Below the pieces are notes generated by a model. That model did no database searches, was not told the DNA's origin, and saw only the letters and a program-made list of their open reading frames with translations. A DNA stretch of 50,973 nucleotides from Clostridia bacterium (GTDB lineage: Bacteria > Bacillota > Clostridia > UBA1212), in assembly GCA_045544575.1 (NCBI GenBank), contig JAZPZG010000075.1, positions 1 to 50,973 of the forward strand, given 5' to 3'. This document shows positions 1-6,919 of the stretch, piece by piece (within the stretch, counting starts at the first letter, position 1; each line of letters starts with the position of its first letter). The position numbers and the translations under genes were made by a program.

Positions 1-147
1 ATCGTATTTGATTTTTCCGGTGAAGAAATACAACGTTTTCTCGAAACACAGGAAGTTCACAAACTGGTAAATATTGAGGCTGTTCAATGGTTTGGCTTGT
101 GTAACACAAATGAAGAGATACGAAGCATCCCCCGCCCGCAAAAATGA
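1..147 (+). CDS. 3' end of a hypothetical protein, truncated by the window edge (IVFDFSGEEIQRF...IPRPQK*)
   Basis: Frame +1 is open from base 1 to TGA at 145-147 and is followed by a strong hairpin. Too short for the ORF track. Confidence 0.55.
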   Translation: MVFDFSGEEIQRFLETQEVHKLVNIEAVQWFGLCNTNEEIRSIPRPQK

Positions 148-169
148 TAGATTATACGGAAGCATAACG

Positions 170-208
170 AAAAACTGCCGATGCACTTCTATGTGTTTCG
201 GCAGTTTT
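170..208. terminator. Intrinsic terminator, probably bidirectional
   Basis: AAAACTGCCGA...TCGGCAGTTTT 11-bp inverted repeat with A/T tracts on both sides, 23 nt after the stop. Confidence 0.75.
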
Positions 209-280
209 AATATGAGCCCGGCGCGCACTCAACTTAGCGGAGAAATCCCGTTATAGACCTTTAGATAGGTGCTGTTAGCA

Positions 281-317
281 ACAGCCAAGAAAACCTCGTC
301 CGCTCGATTGACATGCT
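281..317 (+). repeat. 37-bp direct repeat, copy 1 (ACAGCCAAGAAAACCTCGTCCGCTCGATTGACATGCT)
   Basis: Identical to 1928-1964; similarity continues loosely for about 13 more nt (TTCCGAAATTGAA vs CGCTGAAATTAAG). Confidence 0.95.
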
Positions 318-336
318 TTCCGAAATTGAATATAAT
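308..336 (+). promoter_or_regulatory. Perfect sigmaA/sigma70 consensus promoter TTGACA-N17-TATAAT
   Basis: TTGACA at 308-313 (inside the 37-bp repeat), 17-nt spacer, TATAAT at 331-336. Confidence 0.85.
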
Positions 337-349
337 CATACCAAAACGA

Positions 350-709
350 AGACTCGTTGGTGCTCTAATTGGGGGTGCCGTCGGATATGTAATTGGACCT
401 TCTGCAAGTAGTGGTATTGTCCTTTGGTCGGGAAATGGAAATGCTAGTGTTTTTCAGGCAGCGAAATCATTTGCTGATAAAAATGGTTTGAGGGTTTTGG
501 AAAAGAATCAAAAGGGGAAAATCTTAACCAAAATGCAAAACAAACTAATTAAAGAGCATGGCAAGGATCCCTCGTGGAAAATAATGAAGGGGACGGTCCA
601 TATTTTTCTTAAGGCAAGTGGTATTCGATTTGAAAGCACATTTCTTACCATTGAGTATTGGATACTTAGAGAAATGGGTGTCAATATGGTATTTCATTTT
701 ATCGATTGA
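350..709 (+). pseudogene. Orphan C-terminal tip of a polymorphic (RHS-like) toxin, ADP-ribosyl-cyclase/NADase-like, 5'-truncated
   Basis: Gly-rich hydrophobic GALIGGAVGYVIG segment followed by LWSG, VLEK..KG, KGTVHIFL and STFLTIEYWIL, resembling ADP-ribosyl-cyclase-fold motifs. No RBS or start after the promoter; the ORF-track start at 269 lies within the promoter/repeat region. Confidence 0.5.
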
Positions 710-719
710 GGGGAAATAT

Positions 720-1142
720 ATGAGAAGTTTTGTTTTGGTTAATATACGTGACGAAAAGAAAATAAAGAAATACCAAAAAGATTGTTTTTTTAAGCAAAGT
801 GTCATTTTACCATATTACCGAGAAGGATACATTTGTTTTTCCTCTTGTAAAAAGTATTCTTTTGAAGAATTAGTAAAAATGTTTCTTCAGGGCAATGAGA
901 GTGAGCAGATTGGAGCCATTTCGATTATTGCTGAAAGTTATCCTTGCGAGTTGTATCGACTTATATGTAGTCGAAGAGATAGCTTTTCGCTTGAAAAATT
1001 AAGATTTATATATGACTTTGTTGTTCCAAGCTACTTGCCGTTAATCCTACCCAAAGAACGTTTATTTGATTATGAATTTGACAAGAATTTTTCAAACGAT
1101 ATATGGGTTAATATTTTAATAGAAATCCGCTCTCTTATGTAA
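720..1142 (+). CDS. Hypothetical 140-aa protein, candidate immunity protein for the upstream toxin tip
   Basis: GAGGGG RBS right after the toxin stop, ATG at 720; position typical of a cognate immunity gene. Confidence 0.6.
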   Translation: MRSFVLVNIRDEKKIKKYQKDCFFKQSVILPYYREGYICFSSCKKYSFEELVKMFLQGNESEQIGAISIIAESYPCELYRLICSRRDSFSLEKLRFIYDFVVPSYLPLILPKERLFDYEFDKNFSNDIWVNILIEIRSLM

Positions 1143-1186
1143 AGAAATACAGAAATTTGTTTTTAATTTGAGGAAAGGGGGACGTA

Positions 1187-1708
1187 ATGAAGAACATTGT
1201 CTGTTTATTGGTAATTATCGTTTTAGTACTGGTGTTTAGTTCGTGTGAGAAAGGAGATTTTAATACGTTTTTTTGCGACAAGAACAACAAACTTGCAGAT
1301 ACTCGCATGGAGGAATTATTTGATGCAATCAAACATAAAAATGGAGATGTTATCAAGAAAATGTTTTCTGAAAAGGCTGTTAACGAAGCCGGAGAGCTTG
1401 ATGTCGAAATAGAGGATTTGCTATCTTTTGTTCAAGGAAAAGTCGCTTCATGGAGTCGTGATGAATCTCCGATAGTTTTTGACAGTAATGAAGAAGGGGG
1501 TAAGAAAAAACAACTTGTAACATGGTATACTCTAAATACTGACGAACAAAGCTATTTGGTTTTTCTTGTGGATTATCCAATGGATACAATCGACCCTAAA
1601 AATAACGGATTGTATTCAATAAGGATTCTTAAAGCGGAAGATGAAGGTAATTTGTTAGGCACGTGGGAAGAATGGGTAATTCCCGGCGTATATGTTATGA
1701 ATAATTAA
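1187..1708 (+). CDS. DUF5104-like lipoprotein (candidate immunity protein)
   Basis: Signal peptide with lipobox FSSC; ADTRMEELFDAIKHKNGDVIKKMFS...GLYSI pattern recalled from DUF5104 proteins; RBS AGGGGG. Confidence 0.65.
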   Translation: MKNIVCLLVIIVLVLVFSSCEKGDFNTFFCDKNNKLADTRMEELFDAIKHKNGDVIKKMFSEKAVNEAGELDVEIEDLLSFVQGKVASWSRDESPIVFDSNEEGGKKKQLVTWYTLNTDEQSYLVFLVDYPMDTIDPKNNGLYSIRILKAEDEGNLLGTWEEWVIPGVYVMNN

Positions 1709-1884
1709 CATTAGTTTTGCTTCGTTAGCAGAACTTTTGATCTTACGGTTACAAAATTGCCTTTAAGTGAGGAAACCGTTGGAGGGGTTTATTCTCTGAC
1801 TGTTACTCTCACGAAAAAGGTGGCAATCATATGTAAAGTGAATTTACGATTTGACCTAAAAACTATTAAGTAAATTATGTTTTT

Positions 1885-1918
1885 TCCCTCTGTGCCCTAC
1901 GGTTGCAGAGGGAGTTTT
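1885..1918. terminator. Intrinsic terminator hairpin
   Basis: TCCCTCTG...CAGAGGGA stem, T tracts on both sides, immediately before repeat copy 2. Confidence 0.65.
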
Positions 1919-1927
1919 ACGTCCTTG

Positions 1928-1964
1928 ACAGCCAAGAAAACCTCGTCCGCTCGATTGACATGCT
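1928..1964 (+). repeat. 37-bp direct repeat, copy 2
   Basis: Identical to 281-317; TTGACA kept at 1955-1960 but the -10 position reads TTACTA (degenerate). Confidence 0.95.
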
Positions 1965-1995
1965 CGCTGAAATTAAGTTACTAAATCATCGTTTT

Positions 1996-2559
1996 TTATG
2001 ACTCCGCAAAATCTCCATGCTCATCAAAATTGCAGTTTTTCAGAAAATTTGGTTGTGCTATACAGGGCGGCTCGATGTGATATCCTTTGTTCTTCAAAAG
2101 ACGAAACTTGAAATCTAAGAGCTCGGCGGGAACGCAAAGATCTTTTGCAACGTCAAAAAATGATTTGTCGCTGGTATTAAGTTTTTCGAGAAGTTCTTCG
2201 TCATCTATTAAGAGTTCTGCCGCAAATAGATTTGCTTCATATTCGGTTGCGGTGGTTGTATCAAATAATTCAATTTCCTGAAAACCGCGCATTGTGTTAA
2301 GTTTTCCGTGTAACAGTGCATGTCCTAACTCATGAGCGCACAGCACTTTTTTTACAATATCAGCGGAATTGTTATTAAGAATGATGTTTTTTACTCTTGA
2401 TTGATAAAAATAGTAAGCTTTTACTGCTGTTCCTAAATTTTTGTAGTGTATTCGGATATTAAGTCTGTCGCACAGTTCAAAGGGATCACGTGTGCCATAT
2501 TTATGAATTAAAAAATCAATTTCTTTAAAGATTAAGTGCGTGTTAGTACGTGTAATCAA
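1996..2559 (-). CDS. ImmA/IrrE family Zn metallopeptidase (anti-repressor)
   Basis: CAHELGHALLH (HExxH), TRDPFELC N-terminus, EYEANLFAAELL motif. TTG start chosen 7 nt after a GAGGT RBS. Confidence 0.9.
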   Translation of the reverse strand: MITRTNTHLIFKEIDFLIHKYGTRDPFELCDRLNIRIHYKNLGTAVKAYYFYQSRVKNIILNNNSADIVKKVLCAHELGHALLHGKLNTMRGFQEIELFDTTTATEYEANLFAAELLIDDEELLEKLNTSDKSFFDVAKDLCVPAELLDFKFRLLKNKGYHIEPPCIAQPNFLKNCNFDEHGDFAES

Positions 2560-2586
2560 TGTTAACCTCACTAAAATTTTAATAAA

Positions 2587-3033
2587 TTAATTGTTTTTTC
2601 TTTTTCGGACTCTTTTAGATGTAAATTTTGAACGGGCTTCTTCTTTCGAATCCAAATAGACTTCCATAAGGGATTGGAAAAATAAATCTTTTGCGGAATC
2701 ATCAAGTTCGCCTCCTGCAAAGAGTGCCGATGCACGCTCAAGAATTTCGGCTGCTTCTTTTGCACCTTTATAACCATATTTACTTTGGGCTTTGGTAATA
2801 AATATATCATAGTCAATGCTTTTTTGCATATCTACTTCATTTTCATCTAAAAGATAAGCTACAGAGACGTTTAATGCAGCGGCTAATTTGCGAATATTTC
2901 CGCTTCGGGGTAAAATACCGGTCTGCTCATACGTATATAACGAGCGTTCGGAAATACCCGATAACTCTGCAACCTCGCTCTGTGACAGGTTTTGTGCAAG
3001 CCTTGCTCTTTTTAATTTTTCGCCAAATGTCAT
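2587..3033 (-). CDS. XRE/Cro-C1 family HTH repressor (ImmR-like)
   Basis: MTFGEKLKRAR...LSQSEVAELSGISERSLYTYEQ HTH_3 pattern; GAGGTG RBS; directly upstream of immA. Confidence 0.9.
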   Translation of the reverse strand: MTFGEKLKRARLAQNLSQSEVAELSGISERSLYTYEQTGILPRSGNIRKLAAALNVSVAYLLDENEVDMQKSIDYDIFITKAQSKYGYKGAKEAAEILERASALFAGGELDDSAKDLFFQSLMEVYLDSKEEARSKFTSKRVRKRKNN

Positions 3034-3074
3034 AGTGAACACCTCGTAAAATTTTAAAAACTTCCGATTAAGTA

Positions 3075-3103
3075 TTGACAAACTTCTTAAAAACAGATAT
3101 ACT
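3075..3103 (+). promoter_or_regulatory. Rightward sigmaA promoter TTGACA-N17-TATACT
   Basis: Hexamers at 3075-3080 and 3098-3103, flanked by inverted TTCCGATT/AATCGGAA and three AAACTTC copies. Confidence 0.75.
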
Positions 3104-3129
3104 TTCAATCGGAATAAAACTTCTGGTTA

Positions 3130-3158
3130 ATTTTAACAAAGAACAAGATTTCTGTCAA
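3130..3158 (-). promoter_or_regulatory. Leftward sigmaA promoter TTGACA-N17-TAAAAT for the repressor/immA operon
   Basis: Reverse strand TTGACA 3158-3153, 17-nt spacer, TAAAAT 3135-3130. Confidence 0.75.
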
Positions 3159-3215
3159 CCGTGTGTGAATATTTTTTTAAGAATTCTAATCTTGAGGAAA
3201 CGGAGTGTTTAAGTT

Positions 3216-3392
3216 ATGGAATCGAAAAAGCAAATTTATATATCAAGCTGCCCCGTGTGCGGTAGGACGTTATTTAAAGGTACTGAAGATTCTTGTATTG
3301 AAGGAGGATGCCCGAAATGTAAGGAGTATTTACGGATTTATTTCAGCAAGACAGGATATCAGGTACACGTAATAAACCAAGAAAAAATTTAA
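3216..3392 (+). CDS. 58-aa zinc-ribbon protein (CPVC...CPKC), Com-like; absent from the ORF track
   Basis: MESKKQIYISSCPVCGRTLFKGTEDSCIEGGCPKCKEYLRIYFSKTGYQVHVINQEKI*; GGAGTG upstream; two CxxC pairs. Confidence 0.75.
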   Translation: MESKKQIYISSCPVCGRTLFKGTEDSCIEGGCPKCKEYLRIYFSKTGYQVHVINQEKI

Positions 3393-3450
3393 AATAATTA
3401 AACAATTTTGCTGAAGAGAAACGTCGGACTTGTTTATTAGTCAAGAAGGA

Positions 3451-3508
3451 CCTGGCAAATACAGAAGATGCATCAATGTGCAATCTGTATTTGTCAGGCT
3501 TTTTTTAT
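3451..3508 (+). terminator. Intrinsic terminator between the zinc-ribbon ORF and the HTH/lysis genes
   Basis: CCTGGCAAATACAGA...TCTGTATTTGTCAGG 15-bp stem followed by a long T tract. Confidence 0.8.
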
Positions 3509-3522
3509 TTTTTGTGTTTATT

Positions 3523-3541
3523 ACGGACAATAGTTGTCCGT
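3523..3541. promoter_or_regulatory. Palindrome ACGGACAA-tag-TTGTCCGT, candidate operator
   Basis: Perfect 8-bp inverted repeat about 40 nt upstream of an HTH gene. Confidence 0.5.
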
Positions 3542-3579
3542 TTTTAACATTATTATGCTTAATGAAAGGAGGTGAGAGA

Positions 3580-3945
3580 ATGCAAGGAACAGCCGAAAGA
3601 AGAATTGAGATAATGAAGGTGTTATGCAGACGCAGATATGAAACAATCTCAAATTTAGCTTTCGAATTCGGTGTTTCGGAGCGAACTATAAGGCGAGATA
3701 TTGAAATACTAAGCATAAGTGAACCGATATATACGCAAGCAGGGCGATACGGAGGGGGTGTATATGTAGTCGGAAATTATTCAATGTCTCGGATGTATAT
3801 GACCGATGAAGAAATGACTGTATTACGTAAGATTGAAAAGGCTGTTAATAATTGTACATGTTGCGATCTTGATGACAGAGAAAAAGAAACTTTGCATTCT
3901 CTCATTGAAATATACACAAAACCCAAAATAAAGAAAGGAGCCTGA
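3580..3945 (+). CDS. HTH domain protein (DeoR/HTH_11-like N-terminal wHTH)
   Basis: TISNLAFEFGVSERTIRRDIEILS...GRYGGGVY; strong AAGGAGGTG RBS before ATG 3580. Confidence 0.8.
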   Translation: MQGTAERRIEIMKVLCRRRYETISNLAFEFGVSERTIRRDIEILSISEPIYTQAGRYGGGVYVVGNYSMSRMYMTDEEMTVLRKIEKAVNNCTCCDLDDREKETLHSLIEIYTKPKIKKGA

Positions 3946-3946
3946 T

Positions 3947-4237
3947 ATGGAAGAGATACGTATTATTTTGGAACGTCATGAACAAAAGCTTCAAAATTTA
4001 GGTGAAGAAATTTTCGGCTTAAGGGCTGTGCAAGCTGAAATACGGTCAATGAATGAAGCTTTGGTTATTTTAGCTACGGAGGTAAAACATGCCAATGAAC
4101 ATTTAACAAGGCATGAACAAAAAATTGAAGAAATAGAGAAACAGCCCAAAACACGCATGCAACAAATTGTAACTGCGATTATTTCGGCGTTAGCAGGAGG
4201 AGTAATTTCGGCAGTTATAGGTTTGTTTTTTGTATAA
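3947..4237 (+). CDS. XhlA-like phage lysis accessory protein (coiled coil + C-terminal TM helix)
   Basis: Heptad-rich N-terminus, hydrophobic C-terminal helix, located before holin and endolysin. Confidence 0.6.
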   Translation: MEEIRIILERHEQKLQNLGEEIFGLRAVQAEIRSMNEALVILATEVKHANEHLTRHEQKIEEIEKQPKTRMQQIVTAIISALAGGVISAVIGLFFV

Positions 4238-4252
4238 AGAAAGGAGAAAATA

Positions 4253-4540
4253 ATGGAGTTTCAACAGTACATTAAAAGTGAATTAACGATCCTAATTCCC
4301 GTGTTGTATATTATAGGATTAGGTATTAAAAAAAGTAAAATAGCAGACAAATACATTCCTTTGATACTCGGGGTTACCTCAGTTATTCTGTCAGCCTTAT
4401 GGGTGTTTGCAACGGAAAATCTTGAAAGCGGAAAAGATATATTAGCAGCGTTTTTTACTGCTGTAACGCAAGGTGTGTTGTTTGCAGGGGCAAGTGTGTA
4501 CGCTAATCAATTAAGTGTACAAGCCAAGAAAAACGAATGA
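4253..4540 (+). CDS. Phage holin family protein
   Basis: 95 aa with 2-3 TM segments; ELTILIPVLYIIG...KYIPLILG...TQGVLFAGASVY holin-family pattern. Confidence 0.85.
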   Translation: MEFQQYIKSELTILIPVLYIIGLGIKKSKIADKYIPLILGVTSVILSALWVFATENLESGKDILAAFFTAVTQGVLFAGASVYANQLSVQAKKNE

Positions 4541-4557
4541 GGTCAGGAGAAAATACA

Positions 4558-5532
4558 ATGAGCTTTGTAATGAGAACAACAAAACCCGAGGCGGGAAATA
4601 AGTACTATATCAGAAAAGAAAGCGGAGGGTATTCGGATGCAGTGCAGGGATTGCCTAAAGATAGAGACTGCGATGTGCTTTCCAACTGCGTAGGATATGC
4701 TTACGGACGCTTTAACGAAATTGGCGGATATGGATATTGTAAATATCTCCTGCCGACAAATGCGGAAAATTTTATGAAGTATAAAGGCGATTGCGAGAGT
4801 GGTCAAAAACCTAAGCTTGGTGCTTGTATGGTATGGAGAAAAGGAAAAACTTTTACAGGTTCTGACGGCGCAGGTCATGTGGCTATCGTGGAAAAGATTA
4901 TCAGCGAAACAGAAGTTTATACTTCGGAGAGCGCATACGGTTCAGTTGCTTTTTGGAATCAAGTACGCAAAAAAGGAATAGACGGAAATTGGGGGGCAGG
5001 CTCGGATTATACATTTATCGGCTTTATTTATAATCCGGCGGTTAAGGAAGATTCAAGTGCTGATTTAAAAGGAGTTCAAAAAGCTGATACGATTCAGAAA
5101 GGTGATATTGTAGCTGTTGCGGACAATGCGGTATATTACAACAGTAAAAAAACTGTTCCTATGTGGGTAAGAAATAAAAATTGGATTGTTCGCAGCATTA
5201 GTGATTCACGTGCTGTGATAGATAAATCGGAGGACAAAACGAGTGCTATTTGCAGTCCGATACACGTAAAATATTTGAAACTTATACGTAAAGCCGTAGA
5301 TAAGCCTGAAAAAGAGAATTTTGCCCCATACAGAGTCAAGATTACAACAACTGCTTTAAATATCAGAAAAAGTGCCGGAACAAATGCATCGGTGGTGGGG
5401 TGTATTCGAGACAAGGGCATATACACTATTGTAGATGAGGCTGACGGAATTGGCGCAACAAAATGGGGAAAACTTAAATCAGGTGCAGGGTGGATAGCAT
5501 TGGATTATACGTTATTTTTGTACAAGGTTTGA
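4558..5532 (+). CDS. CHAP-domain endolysin with SH3-type cell-wall-binding domains
   Basis: LSNCVGYAYGRF (catalytic Cys) and GAGHVAIVE (His); C-terminal LNIRKSAGT...WGKLKSGAGWIAL SH3b; GGAG RBS before 4558. Confidence 0.9.
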   Translation: MSFVMRTTKPEAGNKYYIRKESGGYSDAVQGLPKDRDCDVLSNCVGYAYGRFNEIGGYGYCKYLLPTNAENFMKYKGDCESGQKPKLGACMVWRKGKTFTGSDGAGHVAIVEKIISETEVYTSESAYGSVAFWNQVRKKGIDGNWGAGSDYTFIGFIYNPAVKEDSSADLKGVQKADTIQKGDIVAVADNAVYYNSKKTVPMWVRNKNWIVRSISDSRAVIDKSEDKTSAICSPIHVKYLKLIRKAVDKPEKENFAPYRVKITTTALNIRKSAGTNASVVGCIRDKGIYTIVDEADGIGATKWGKLKSGAGWIALDYTLFLYKV

Positions 5533-5702: not shown

Positions 5703-6251
5703 ATGACTTGGAAGGAGCTCGAAAATAATTGCAGAAGATGTCAGGGATGCGGACTTGCCGCTACCAGGACCAATATGGTTTTCGGAAGAGGCAGCCGTAC
5801 GGCAAAGCTCCTTTTCGTAGGCGAGGGTCCGGGATATAACGAGGATATTCAGGGCGTTGCCTTTGTGGGACAGGCGGGAAAGCTCCTTGATCTGGCTCTT
5901 GAAGCCTGCGGCTTCAATGAAAACGATTATTATATTGCAAACGTAGTTAAATGCCGTCCTCCCGAAAATCGTAATCCTTCTGCAGAGGAATGTGAGGCGT
6001 GCATGCCTAATTTGCGTAAACAGTATGCCTTGCTGAAGCCGAAAATAGTAGTTTGTCTGGGCAGCGTCGCATGTGCGAATCTCATTGCTCCCGATGCAAA
6101 GGTGAGCAATTCCCGCACGAAGTGGATTGAAAAAGGCGGAGCTTTTTTTACTGCCACGTATCATCCTGCGGCTCTTTTGCGTGATGAGACAAAAAAACTT
6201 GACATGTACAGGGATTTGTGCGAGGTAAAGAGAAGGTTGGACGAGCTATGA
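5703..6251 (+). CDS. udg: Uracil-DNA glycosylase family 4 with 4Fe-4S ligands
   Basis: CRRCQGC, VGEGPG, NVVKCRPPENRNP, YHPAALLR motifs. Confidence 0.92.
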   Translation: MTWKELENNCRRCQGCGLAATRTNMVFGRGSRTAKLLFVGEGPGYNEDIQGVAFVGQAGKLLDLALEACGFNENDYYIANVVKCRPPENRNPSAEECEACMPNLRKQYALLKPKIVVCLGSVACANLIAPDAKVSNSRTKWIEKGGAFFTATYHPAALLRDETKKLDMYRDLCEVKRRLDEL

Positions 6252-6919
6252 GCAAGGAAGTTGAATTAAAGGCTCTTTATGACGAATACATTCGAGAAGT
6301 GACACAAAATCCGACGTGTAAGAATGCGGGAGGCTACAGCTTTGTTCTCGGAGACGGTTCCGCAGACAGCAAGGTTGTTCTTATAGGGGAAGCACCGGGA
6401 AAAGACGAGGTTGCCGAGGGCAGACCGTTTGTCGGTAAGGCAGGAAGTATTCTGGATTCATTTATGGATGGTGCCGGTATTGTCAGAAGTGAGCTTTTTA
6501 TAACAAATTCAATAAAATACAGGCTTGCTCGTGAAAGCAAGTCGGGAAAAGGATTGGCAAACCGCCCCGCAAAAACGAAAGAAATAGCTCAAAGCGCTGT
6601 ATTTCTTGCAAAAGAATTGCAGATAATAAACCCGAAAATAATTGTTACGCTGGGAAACGTTCCTTTAAAATCGATTTCGCTGTGTGCTGAATCTTTCAAT
6701 GTGAGCGGCAGTATTGATGAGTTGCTTTTATCCTTAAAAAAAGGCGTTGGGACATGTCACGGACGTTCTTTTGAGATTTTTTTCGGGGACGGTAAGAATC
6801 CGGGGGAGAAGTCCTCGTTGCTCTTTCCGTTGTATCATCCTGCAAGTATTATCTATAATAGCTCGCTTAAAGCAGTTTATGAAAAAGACCTTGCAGCATT
6901 AAGAAAACTGATTTTGTAA
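6248..6919 (+). CDS. Second family-4-like uracil-DNA glycosylase lacking the Fe-S cysteines
   Basis: IGEAPG, RPFVG, TNSIKYR, YHPASI motifs; ATGA overlap with the first udg. Confidence 0.85.
   Translation: MSKEVELKALYDEYIREVTQNPTCKNAGGYSFVLGDGSADSKVVLIGEAPGKDEVAEGRPFVGKAGSILDSFMDGAGIVRSELFITNSIKYRLARESKSGKGLANRPAKTKEIAQSAVFLAKELQIINPKIIVTLGNVPLKSISLCAESFNVSGSIDELLLSLKKGVGTCHGRSFEIFFGDGKNPGEKSSLLFPLYHPASIIYNSSLKAVYEKDLAALRKLIL

Follow-up and report, generated by a model that had tools for sequence, protein, structure and literature searches.

Type 10 secretion, in which a lysis cassette serves for protein release, is described for YenTc of Yersinia entomophaga, ChiWXYZ of Serratia and TtsA of Salmonella, and the Tc toxins, which contain the RHS-type TcC, are set free when a dedicated regulator makes a subpopulation lyse (PMC10847048, PMC10847046, PMC10109510). 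In the pathogenicity locus (PaLoc) of Clostridium difficile and in related loci (TpeL, TcsL), the regulator TcdR, the holin TcdE and the lysin remnant TcdL are found with the toxins TcdA and TcdB (PMC3369941, PMC12485765, PMC8878733). The window analyzed here is the whole 50,973-nt contig JAZPZG010000075.1 (C75) of assembly GCA_045544575.1 (G000), a fragmented metagenome-assembled genome of a Clostridia bacterium of the UBA1212 lineage (1.35 Mb, 87 contigs, 62% complete). Its positions 1996-5532 hold a 3.5-kb block in which an ImmA/XRE switch stands beside an operon for an HTH_11 regulator, an XhlA-like protein, a holin and a lysin. The best reading of the sequence is a stress-derepressed lysis operon that would be co-regulated with an RHS toxin and would serve a release route like those of type 10 secretion and the PaLoc; the block is predicted, with confidence only slightly above even for the full mechanism, to be the control-and-lysis module of a widespread family of RHS polymorphic-toxin islands in uncultured gut Clostridia.

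The likeness to type 10 secretion lies in a phage-derived holin and peptidoglycan hydrolase that stand outside any prophage and in their probable genetic and regulatory tie to large toxins without an export signal. The differences are that the host is presumably a Gram-positive monoderm, so that there is no spanin; that an XhlA-like partner is present and an RHS polymorphic toxin of antibacterial type, which comes with immunity genes, forms the cargo; and that an ImmA/XRE switch and HTH_11 would take the place of a PhoB-like or temperature regulator. With the PaLoc the block has in common a clostridial toxin locus, an embedded phage-type holin with a lysin or its remnant, a dedicated positive regulator and giant toxins without a signal, whereas the holin belongs to a different family, HTH_11 and ImmA/XRE replace the TcdR sigma factor, the toxins are RHS proteins rather than large clostridial glucosylating toxins, and the endolysin is intact. 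PBSX of Bacillus subtilis has an xre repressor and the genes xhlA-xhlB-xlyA, and its SOS-type induction lyses the host without infectious phage. The block matches PBSX in the order XhlA-like protein, holin, endolysin and in its XRE-family repressor, but PBSX encodes head and tail particles, of which there are none here or in homologous loci, and here the XhlA match is below the Pfam threshold and the lysin is a CHAP enzyme, not an amidase. No paper was found that describes this combination in Gram-positive gut bacteria. The features of the block are as follows.

1996-2571, minus strand: ImmA-type M78 metallopeptidase (Pfam Peptidase_M78 PF06114, E = 9e-22, 77.6 bits, cut-off 22)
2587-3033, minus strand: XRE-family repressor with an N-terminal helix-turn-helix (HTH) and a C-terminal domain (Pfam HTH_3, E = 2e-11)
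3057-3158: switch region with face-to-face promoters, in the spacer between the XRE and zinc-ribbon genes
3059-3070 and 3118-3129: exact copies of the operator repeat AACTTCYGRTTA, with degenerate copies over both -35 boxes
3075-3103: rightward promoter P(+), TTGACA-17-TATACT (11/12 consensus match)
3158-3130: leftward promoter P(-), TTGACA-17-TAAAAT (11/12 consensus match)
3216-3392, plus strand: four-Cys zinc-ribbon protein of 58 aa (CPVC...CPKC), first gene of the rightward transcript
3443-3513, plus strand: intrinsic-terminator-like hairpin of 22 bp with a U-run, between the zinc-ribbon and HTH_11 genes
3517-3547, plus strand: palindromic element TTAcGGACA-N5-TGTCCgTTTTTAAC; a -10-like TATTAT and then the ribosome-binding site (RBS) of HTH_11 come next
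3580-3945, plus strand: HTH_11/DeoR-type regulator of 121 aa without a WYL domain (Pfam HTH_11, 3e-8)
3947-4237, plus strand: XhlA-like protein, a coiled coil and a C-terminal transmembrane helix (PHROG phrog_937 'hemolysin', 8e-9)
4253-4540, plus strand: holin of family Hol44 / holin superfamily V (Pfam Phage_holin_5_2 PF16079, E = 1e-25, 90 bits, cut-off 29.2)
4558-5532, plus strand: CHAP peptidoglycan hydrolase with a C-terminal SH3-like wall-binding region, 324 aa (Pfam CHAP, 4e-12, 46.8 bits, cut-off 26)

The seven open reading frames (ORFs) listed in an earlier note on this DNA are all present and intact (7/7), at or near the coordinates it gave, and their families are confirmed by Pfam and PHROGs. 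Its description of intact genes with strong RBSs and catalytic residues is borne out for the ORFs and the conserved residues and for the RBSs of HTH_11, XhlA, holin and lysin (ATG at 4558), but not for immA, which has a GTG start without a Shine-Dalgarno sequence. It had also remarked on the lack of a phage body and on a udg gene directly downstream, and the contig agrees: no virion, packaging, replication or integrase gene was found between the module ORFs or elsewhere on C75, no tRNA is encoded on the contig, and the remainder, judged by eye, consists of housekeeping genes for central metabolism and cell-wall polysaccharides. DNA and protein searches returned no near-identical locus, and no identical record of the lysin or of ImmA; the closest lysin and HTH_11 homologs are about 70% identical.

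The relatives of the block were sampled by a holin-anchored scan of species-representative genomes, which returned 80 loci, 61 of them with an XhlA homolog beside the holin. In 46 of these 61 an island marker (RHS, a seven-gene enzyme operon, HTH_11 or the ImmA/XRE/zinc-ribbon switch) lies within 10 kb; the block had been described as stand-alone, and it is instead one piece of a larger RHS-toxin island family. RHS genes lie within 10 kb in at least 24 of the 61; among all 80 loci, 29 have HTH_11, 17 have the enzyme operon and seven have the full switch. As a rough yardstick, three RHS loci per 1.35 Mb correspond to a chance of about 6% for a random 20-kb stretch, and the RHS linkage is far above chance. 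A tree of the holins places the window within a clade of 66 rows (support 94/90) that contains 48 of the 49 island-context rows, and 13 of the 16 holin-only rows fall outside it. When 72 ORFs upstream of the cassette that had no other explanation were scanned in bulk with PHROGs in the 46 island loci, no terminase, portal, capsid or tape measure was found; the matches were to Ig-domain (Big_2) proteins, serine recombinases and ImmA-like regulators. Control loci with a lower-identity holin only do carry tape-measure and tail proteins. In 50,697 phage genomes, BLAST found no match to the XhlA-like protein and no match to the holin above 48% identity, and a DNA search of phage genomes gave one marginal match only, to the XRE region. 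The components descend from phages, yet the members of this clade reside in toxin islands.

These data bear on whether the block is inert debris of a temperate phage or mobile element, left when an internal deletion fused a lysogeny switch to a lysis cassette with no current function. Every part does come from phage-related families; the phage relatives of HTH_11, about 50% identical, lie in the early region of gut phages beside an ImmA-like protease; GC content is low and distribution patchy; remnants of mobile elements adjoin the module; and the same blocks are decaying in one relative (L035). Debris is nevertheless an unlikely explanation, for no homologous locus examined is a prophage, none of the seven ORFs is broken and their conserved residues are kept, the control elements described below (operator array, terminator, palindrome) are conserved to the base, the XhlA RBS fits tidily within the 3' end of HTH_11, the same wiring exists in two other species, and a control element is common to the block and an RHS gene of the same genome. 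That the block is something other than a prophage remnant is accordingly held with more confidence than the full mechanism, and the earlier note's rejection of random prophage debris stands, since its homologs in other genomes are no prophages, and many species have the same regulator and lysis blocks unaccompanied by virion genes. Its word 'domesticated', taken as vertical conservation, does not: the holin clade and its cassette are absent from all 11 of the same-family genomes, including the same-genus G001, and bases 1-5000 have a GC content of 0.35-0.39 compared to about 0.42 for the genome, so the module looks horizontally acquired rather than vertically domesticated. In G001 the contigs break at both homologous flanks.

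The candidate regulatory tie to an RHS toxin in this genome is the palindromic element. A mismatch-tolerant search for the 31-nt element finds exactly two sites in the 1.35-Mb assembly and none in shuffled genomes; one precedes the HTH_11-lysis genes of the window, and the other (C67:36863) lies on contig C67, 116 nt upstream of where an RHS gene starts. The core (C)GGACA-N5-TGTCC(G) is invariant across species, and the survey loci hold 45 copies where about 13 are expected, at fixed spacings of 67-70 nt 5' of XhlA in at least nine loci and 55-65 nt 5' of HTH_11 in at least six (at least 15 loci together). RHS genes of this genome are found on C67, C59 and C18. The C67 protein shares 56% identity with a lysis-linked RHS and shows no signal-like N-terminus, and its gene is cut off by the contig end. 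In the stretch C67:36863-36990, the palindrome copy and, after it, an apparent remnant of the first HTH_11 codons are fused directly to the RHS start, which suggests that this lineage has lost the entire enzyme operon by deletion. L044 has a comparable fusion of a truncated HTH_11 with RHS. The C59 RHS has a Sec-type signal and lacks the palindromic element, and 15 of 16 island RHS proteins with defined N-termini have no N-terminal hydrophobic segment. In this genome the linkage to toxin cargo extends only to an orphan toxin tip in cis and an element shared with the C67 RHS gene; the proposed link to the adjacent toxin and immunity DNA holds and is reinforced by the shared element.

Upstream of the palindrome, the terminator-like hairpin folds with z = -5.3 relative to shuffled sequences, and its pairing is kept through double changes at 11 pairs across eight species. 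Because this conserved leader of terminator and palindrome lies between the zinc-ribbon and HTH_11 genes, the rightward transcript of the switch is probably halted or gated before HTH_11, and the idea of a switch simply wired to lysis does not fit. A second, different conserved leader, AACTTAGTACATAGCACGATGTT...AACATACGAGCATGACAAGTA, lies about 150 nt upstream of XhlA-proximal HTH_11 genes in L037, L041, L046, L047, L058 and L094 and may be another structured RNA or operator.

The switch has the parts of an ImmA/ImmR-type system: an M78 HEXXH protease, an adjacent co-oriented XRE gene, a divergent promoter and repeated operators. The ImmA motifs HELGH and EYEANLFAAELL are intact (HELGH...EYEANLFAAELL), and the protein also matches a PHROG metallo-protease (1e-21) and PADLOC CapP (1e-12). 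The XRE gene lies 15 nt upstream of immA, co-oriented with it and divergent from the rightward promoter; its product matches PADLOC CapH (4e-10), its best solved-structure match is ICEBs1 ImmR (PDB 7t8i, 6e-4), and its orthologs are 66-80% identical in at least 12 loci. Solved structures gave nothing informative for HTH_11 or the zinc-ribbon protein. The two exact copies of AACTTCYGRTTA are the only ones in the window, and with the degenerate copies the repeat takes four positions: 5' of the rightward -35 box, over the rightward -35 box and spacer, just past the rightward -10 box, and fused to the leftward -35 box. The same layout of three to four copies recurs in 12 loci of different species, and the array resembles, by analogy, the operator arrays of ImmR. 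The zinc-ribbon protein has only a weak PHROG match (gpCom-like, 6e-4), and its orthologs, 50-74% identical, are always divergent from XRE. Like ImmR-ImmA of ICEBs1 and phi105 and CapH-CapP of the cyclic-oligonucleotide-based antiphage signaling system (CBASS), the XRE gene is followed by a co-transcribed M78 HEXXH protease gene, is divergent from the controlled promoter and has multiple operator repeats across the divergent region. Unlike these systems, the module controls neither excision or conjugation genes nor a CBASS operon, and its first controlled gene encodes a zinc-ribbon protein and is followed by a terminator.

The matches to CapP and CapH, regulators of CBASS and other defense operons, raise the alternative of abortive infection, in which a CapP/CapH-like switch would sense phage attack or DNA damage and set off altruistic lysis before phage progeny mature, with no need of a toxin. 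The Tmk-like enzyme of related islands also matches PADLOC candidate models, and a reverse-transcriptase gene precedes the cassette in L033. Within the module, however, the regulators match alone, with no CBASS or other PADLOC effector and no known sensor beside them; the main neighbors across species are RHS toxins and accessory genes rather than defense islands; and the palindrome ties the operon to an RHS gene. Abortive-infection defense is considered very unlikely.

The genes of the lysis operon are closely packed. HTH_11 and XhlA are separated by 1 nt, and the XhlA RBS sits within the last HTH_11 codons. The XhlA-like protein scores 27.1 bits with Pfam XhlA, below the gathering score of 34.7, and its coiled-coil and transmembrane topology fits. 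The holin and the hydrolase, adjacent and co-oriented, form a holin-endolysin cassette by family and by catalytic residues. The lysin probably starts at ATG 4558, not 4537, in view of the good RBS and of agreement with a 324-aa database record; it matches a PHROG amidase (5e-19) and, of the 105 positions that are nearly invariant in its family, retains 103, the catalytic Cys51 and His114 among them. An intact CHAP lysin with these residues and an RHS linkage far above chance argue against a TcdE-like non-lytic holin export, or a programmed autolysis for other goods such as extracellular DNA, membrane vesicles or spore/mother-cell lysis, in which the RHS link would be incidental. Such uses draw support from L048, L072 and L082, which keep XhlA and holin without a lysin, as in non-lytic holin export, and from the vesicle formation that XhlAB-XlyA of PBSX drives in B. 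subtilis; with a lysin in 46 of the 80 related loci, they are distinctly improbable here. In L072 and L082 a permease of the AAE family (Asp-Al_Ex) occupies the position of the lysin. In 22 of the 80 loci (L018:10963-12018; L033:4974-5876; L014:7664-8569), the next gene after the lysin or holin encodes a membrane-anchored calcineurin-like metallophosphoesterase, which is missing in the window.

The HTH_11 regulator, a candidate island activator or autoregulator and the sole intact HTH_11 gene in the assembly, has 778 homologs, which in relatives head enzyme/RHS operons or XhlA-holin cassettes. Its usual operon encodes NTP_transf_5, a thymidylate-kinase-like protein (Tmk), a PP-binding carrier protein, a 341-aa protein, an AMP-ligase, a CYTH protein and a 376-aa protein (L030:10362-16455; L048:3526-8371; L027:10363-16369), then an RHS toxin of about 2,000 aa, and is often preceded by the same ImmA-XRE / zinc-ribbon switch as in the window. 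This seven-gene operon, found beside RHS toxins in numerous gut Clostridia, fits to our knowledge no known pathway, and the assembled 62% of the G000 genome lacks it. The switch also heads other non-phage operons, with enzymes and then RHS or XhlA-holin in L030 and L048, a 375-aa companion and then RHS in L016, and RHS in L044. G016 and G028 have XhlA-holin and a gene for a membrane metallophosphoesterase straight after the switch and the enzyme operon, and no virion gene. G025 and G040 have RHS and immunity genes, next a Big_2 protein or small ORF, and then XhlA-holin-lysin. The direct junction of immA-XRE / zinc-ribbon with XhlA-holin occurs in L072 and, with two genes inserted, in L082, where an orphan toxin tip and its immunity partner precede the switch as they do in the window. 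The gene order that the earlier note wished to see in relatives is thus found, as far as the wiring from switch to XhlA-holin without virion genes is concerned, in two other species, but neither has the lysin. In L017 (1405-8996), an XhlA-holin-CHAP cassette with a 67% identical lysin adjoins housekeeping genes and is immediately preceded by three large serine recombinases in a row, then a stand-alone Tox-REase-7 gene and two genes of no known kind.

In the predicted pathway, the XRE repressor on the AACTTCYGRTTA array would shut the rightward promoter and autoregulate its own. A stress signal (DNA damage, by analogy with ImmA/ImmR and CapP/CapH) would cause the ImmA metalloprotease to inactivate XRE, and the rightward transcript would then yield the zinc-ribbon protein, which, with HTH_11 or as an alternative to it, would act at the checkpoint formed by the terminator and palindrome. 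HTH_11 and the packed XhlA-holin-CHAP genes would be expressed from, or through, the palindrome-marked control region past the terminator, and the RHS gene would be co-induced in trans via the same element. Because the palindrome also precedes an RHS gene without a signal, toxin synthesis would be induced together with lysis or permeabilization by the holin and endolysin, which would affect a fraction of the cells and release the toxin; giant RHS toxins without an export signal are thus probably freed by bursting some of the cells that produce them. We infer the binders of these sites, the inducing signal, the read-through of the terminator and the release of toxin by lysis. A wider proposal, put forward tentatively and rated somewhat short of an even chance, is that the gut Clostridia possess a previously undescribed, horizontally mobile 'toxin-lysis regulon', in which ImmA/XRE and HTH_11 as master regulator would co-induce RHS proteins without a signal and XhlA-holin-endolysin via GGACA-N5-TGTCC, even when these are at separate loci.

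Several observations weigh against a stress-induced lysis module for RHS toxins. The conserved terminator means that the ImmA/XRE promoter may not directly drive lysis. No RHS core gene is on C75, which has only the orphan tip and immunity gene (269-1142), and no contig-end overlap was found that joins the 5' end of the window to other contigs of G000, C67 and C18 included. The absence of signal peptides was judged by crude hydropathy only, and detection of RHS in the survey rested on two BLAST queries; 15 of the 61 loci have no island marker, most of them on short contigs. The closest holin relative, L035, has a fragmented lysin and HTH_11, with the cassette and switch adjacent in reverse order, and therefore such modules can decay. 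Nonsynonymous divergence (dN), at 0.12-0.35, counts in favor of the module together with the intact ORFs; synonymous divergence (dS) is saturated against every relative and hence uninformative on recent selection of this copy; with the cassette absent from same-family genomes, a long-term benefit in this lineage is unproven.

The module begins 2 kb from the contig end, and the sequence 5' of base 1 lies beyond the contig. The features that flank it are context, outside the module.

269-709, plus strand: orphan RHS-type toxin tip, a glycine-zipper/transmembrane segment and then a C-terminal domain
281-327, plus strand: 47-nt direct repeat, copy 1, carrying the -35 box of a near-perfect promoter, TTGACA-17-TATAAT, at 308-336
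618-1142, plus strand: putative immunity gene, overlapping the toxin tip
1187-1708, plus strand: DUF5104 lipoprotein gene (Pfam PF17117, E = 2.8e-21)
1745-1845, plus strand: truncated 5' part of a small conserved gene, which lacks a start codon and is stopped after about 33 codons
1928-1974, plus strand: 47-nt direct repeat, copy 2, abutting the 3' end of immA
5703-6251 and 6218-6919: two genes of the uracil-DNA glycosylase (UDG) family, directly after the lysis genes

The toxin tip and immunity gene have no Pfam family; their homologs on contig C13 of G001 (tip 63-74%, immunity 81% amino acid identity) directly follow an RHS core-end fragment ('...YDPEIGRF...'). The two copies of the 47-nt repeat, 94% identical in a blastn self-match, bracket the toxin tip, immunity and DUF5104 genes, and copy 2 is the probable left boundary of the block of switch and lysis genes. 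Copy 2, which has a weaker -10 box, is directed antisense into immA at its 3' end. The truncated gene at 1745-1845 has no Pfam or Rfam match, and is matched at 78-86% nucleotide identity in six genomes of the order, across families; its intact relative is an ORF of 95-98 aa (for example L014:10337-10633 and L117:5865-6152), which in G040 is located between RHS-immunity and XhlA, in L117 precedes a serine recombinase and in G009 is found at the ends of contigs. It is a remnant of the mobile-element type. A tRNA or att site at 1745-1869 was rejected, there being no tRNA and no Rfam family, in favor of this remnant of a small mobile-element-associated gene. The UDG pair consists of two different genes of the UDG superfamily in tandem, with a 34-nt overlap, and is adjacent also in relatives of the order, such as L009.

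How giant RHS toxins without a signal leave Gram-positive cells is an outstanding question, lysis-mediated release being established mainly for Gram-negative Tc toxins and debated for the large clostridial toxins. The locus is a compact and complete version of the proposed release machinery, with a stress switch, operator repeats, a terminator checkpoint and a regulon palindrome. For those who annotate genomes there is a caution: where ImmA/XRE and holin/lysin genes stand isolated in gut Clostridia, the label 'prophage remnant' may conceal a working system of interbacterial competition. If the proposed mechanism is true, sacrificial lysis of a subpopulation would be an export route for RHS toxins in monoderms, a Gram-positive counterpart of type 10 secretion in a unit of 3.5 kb.

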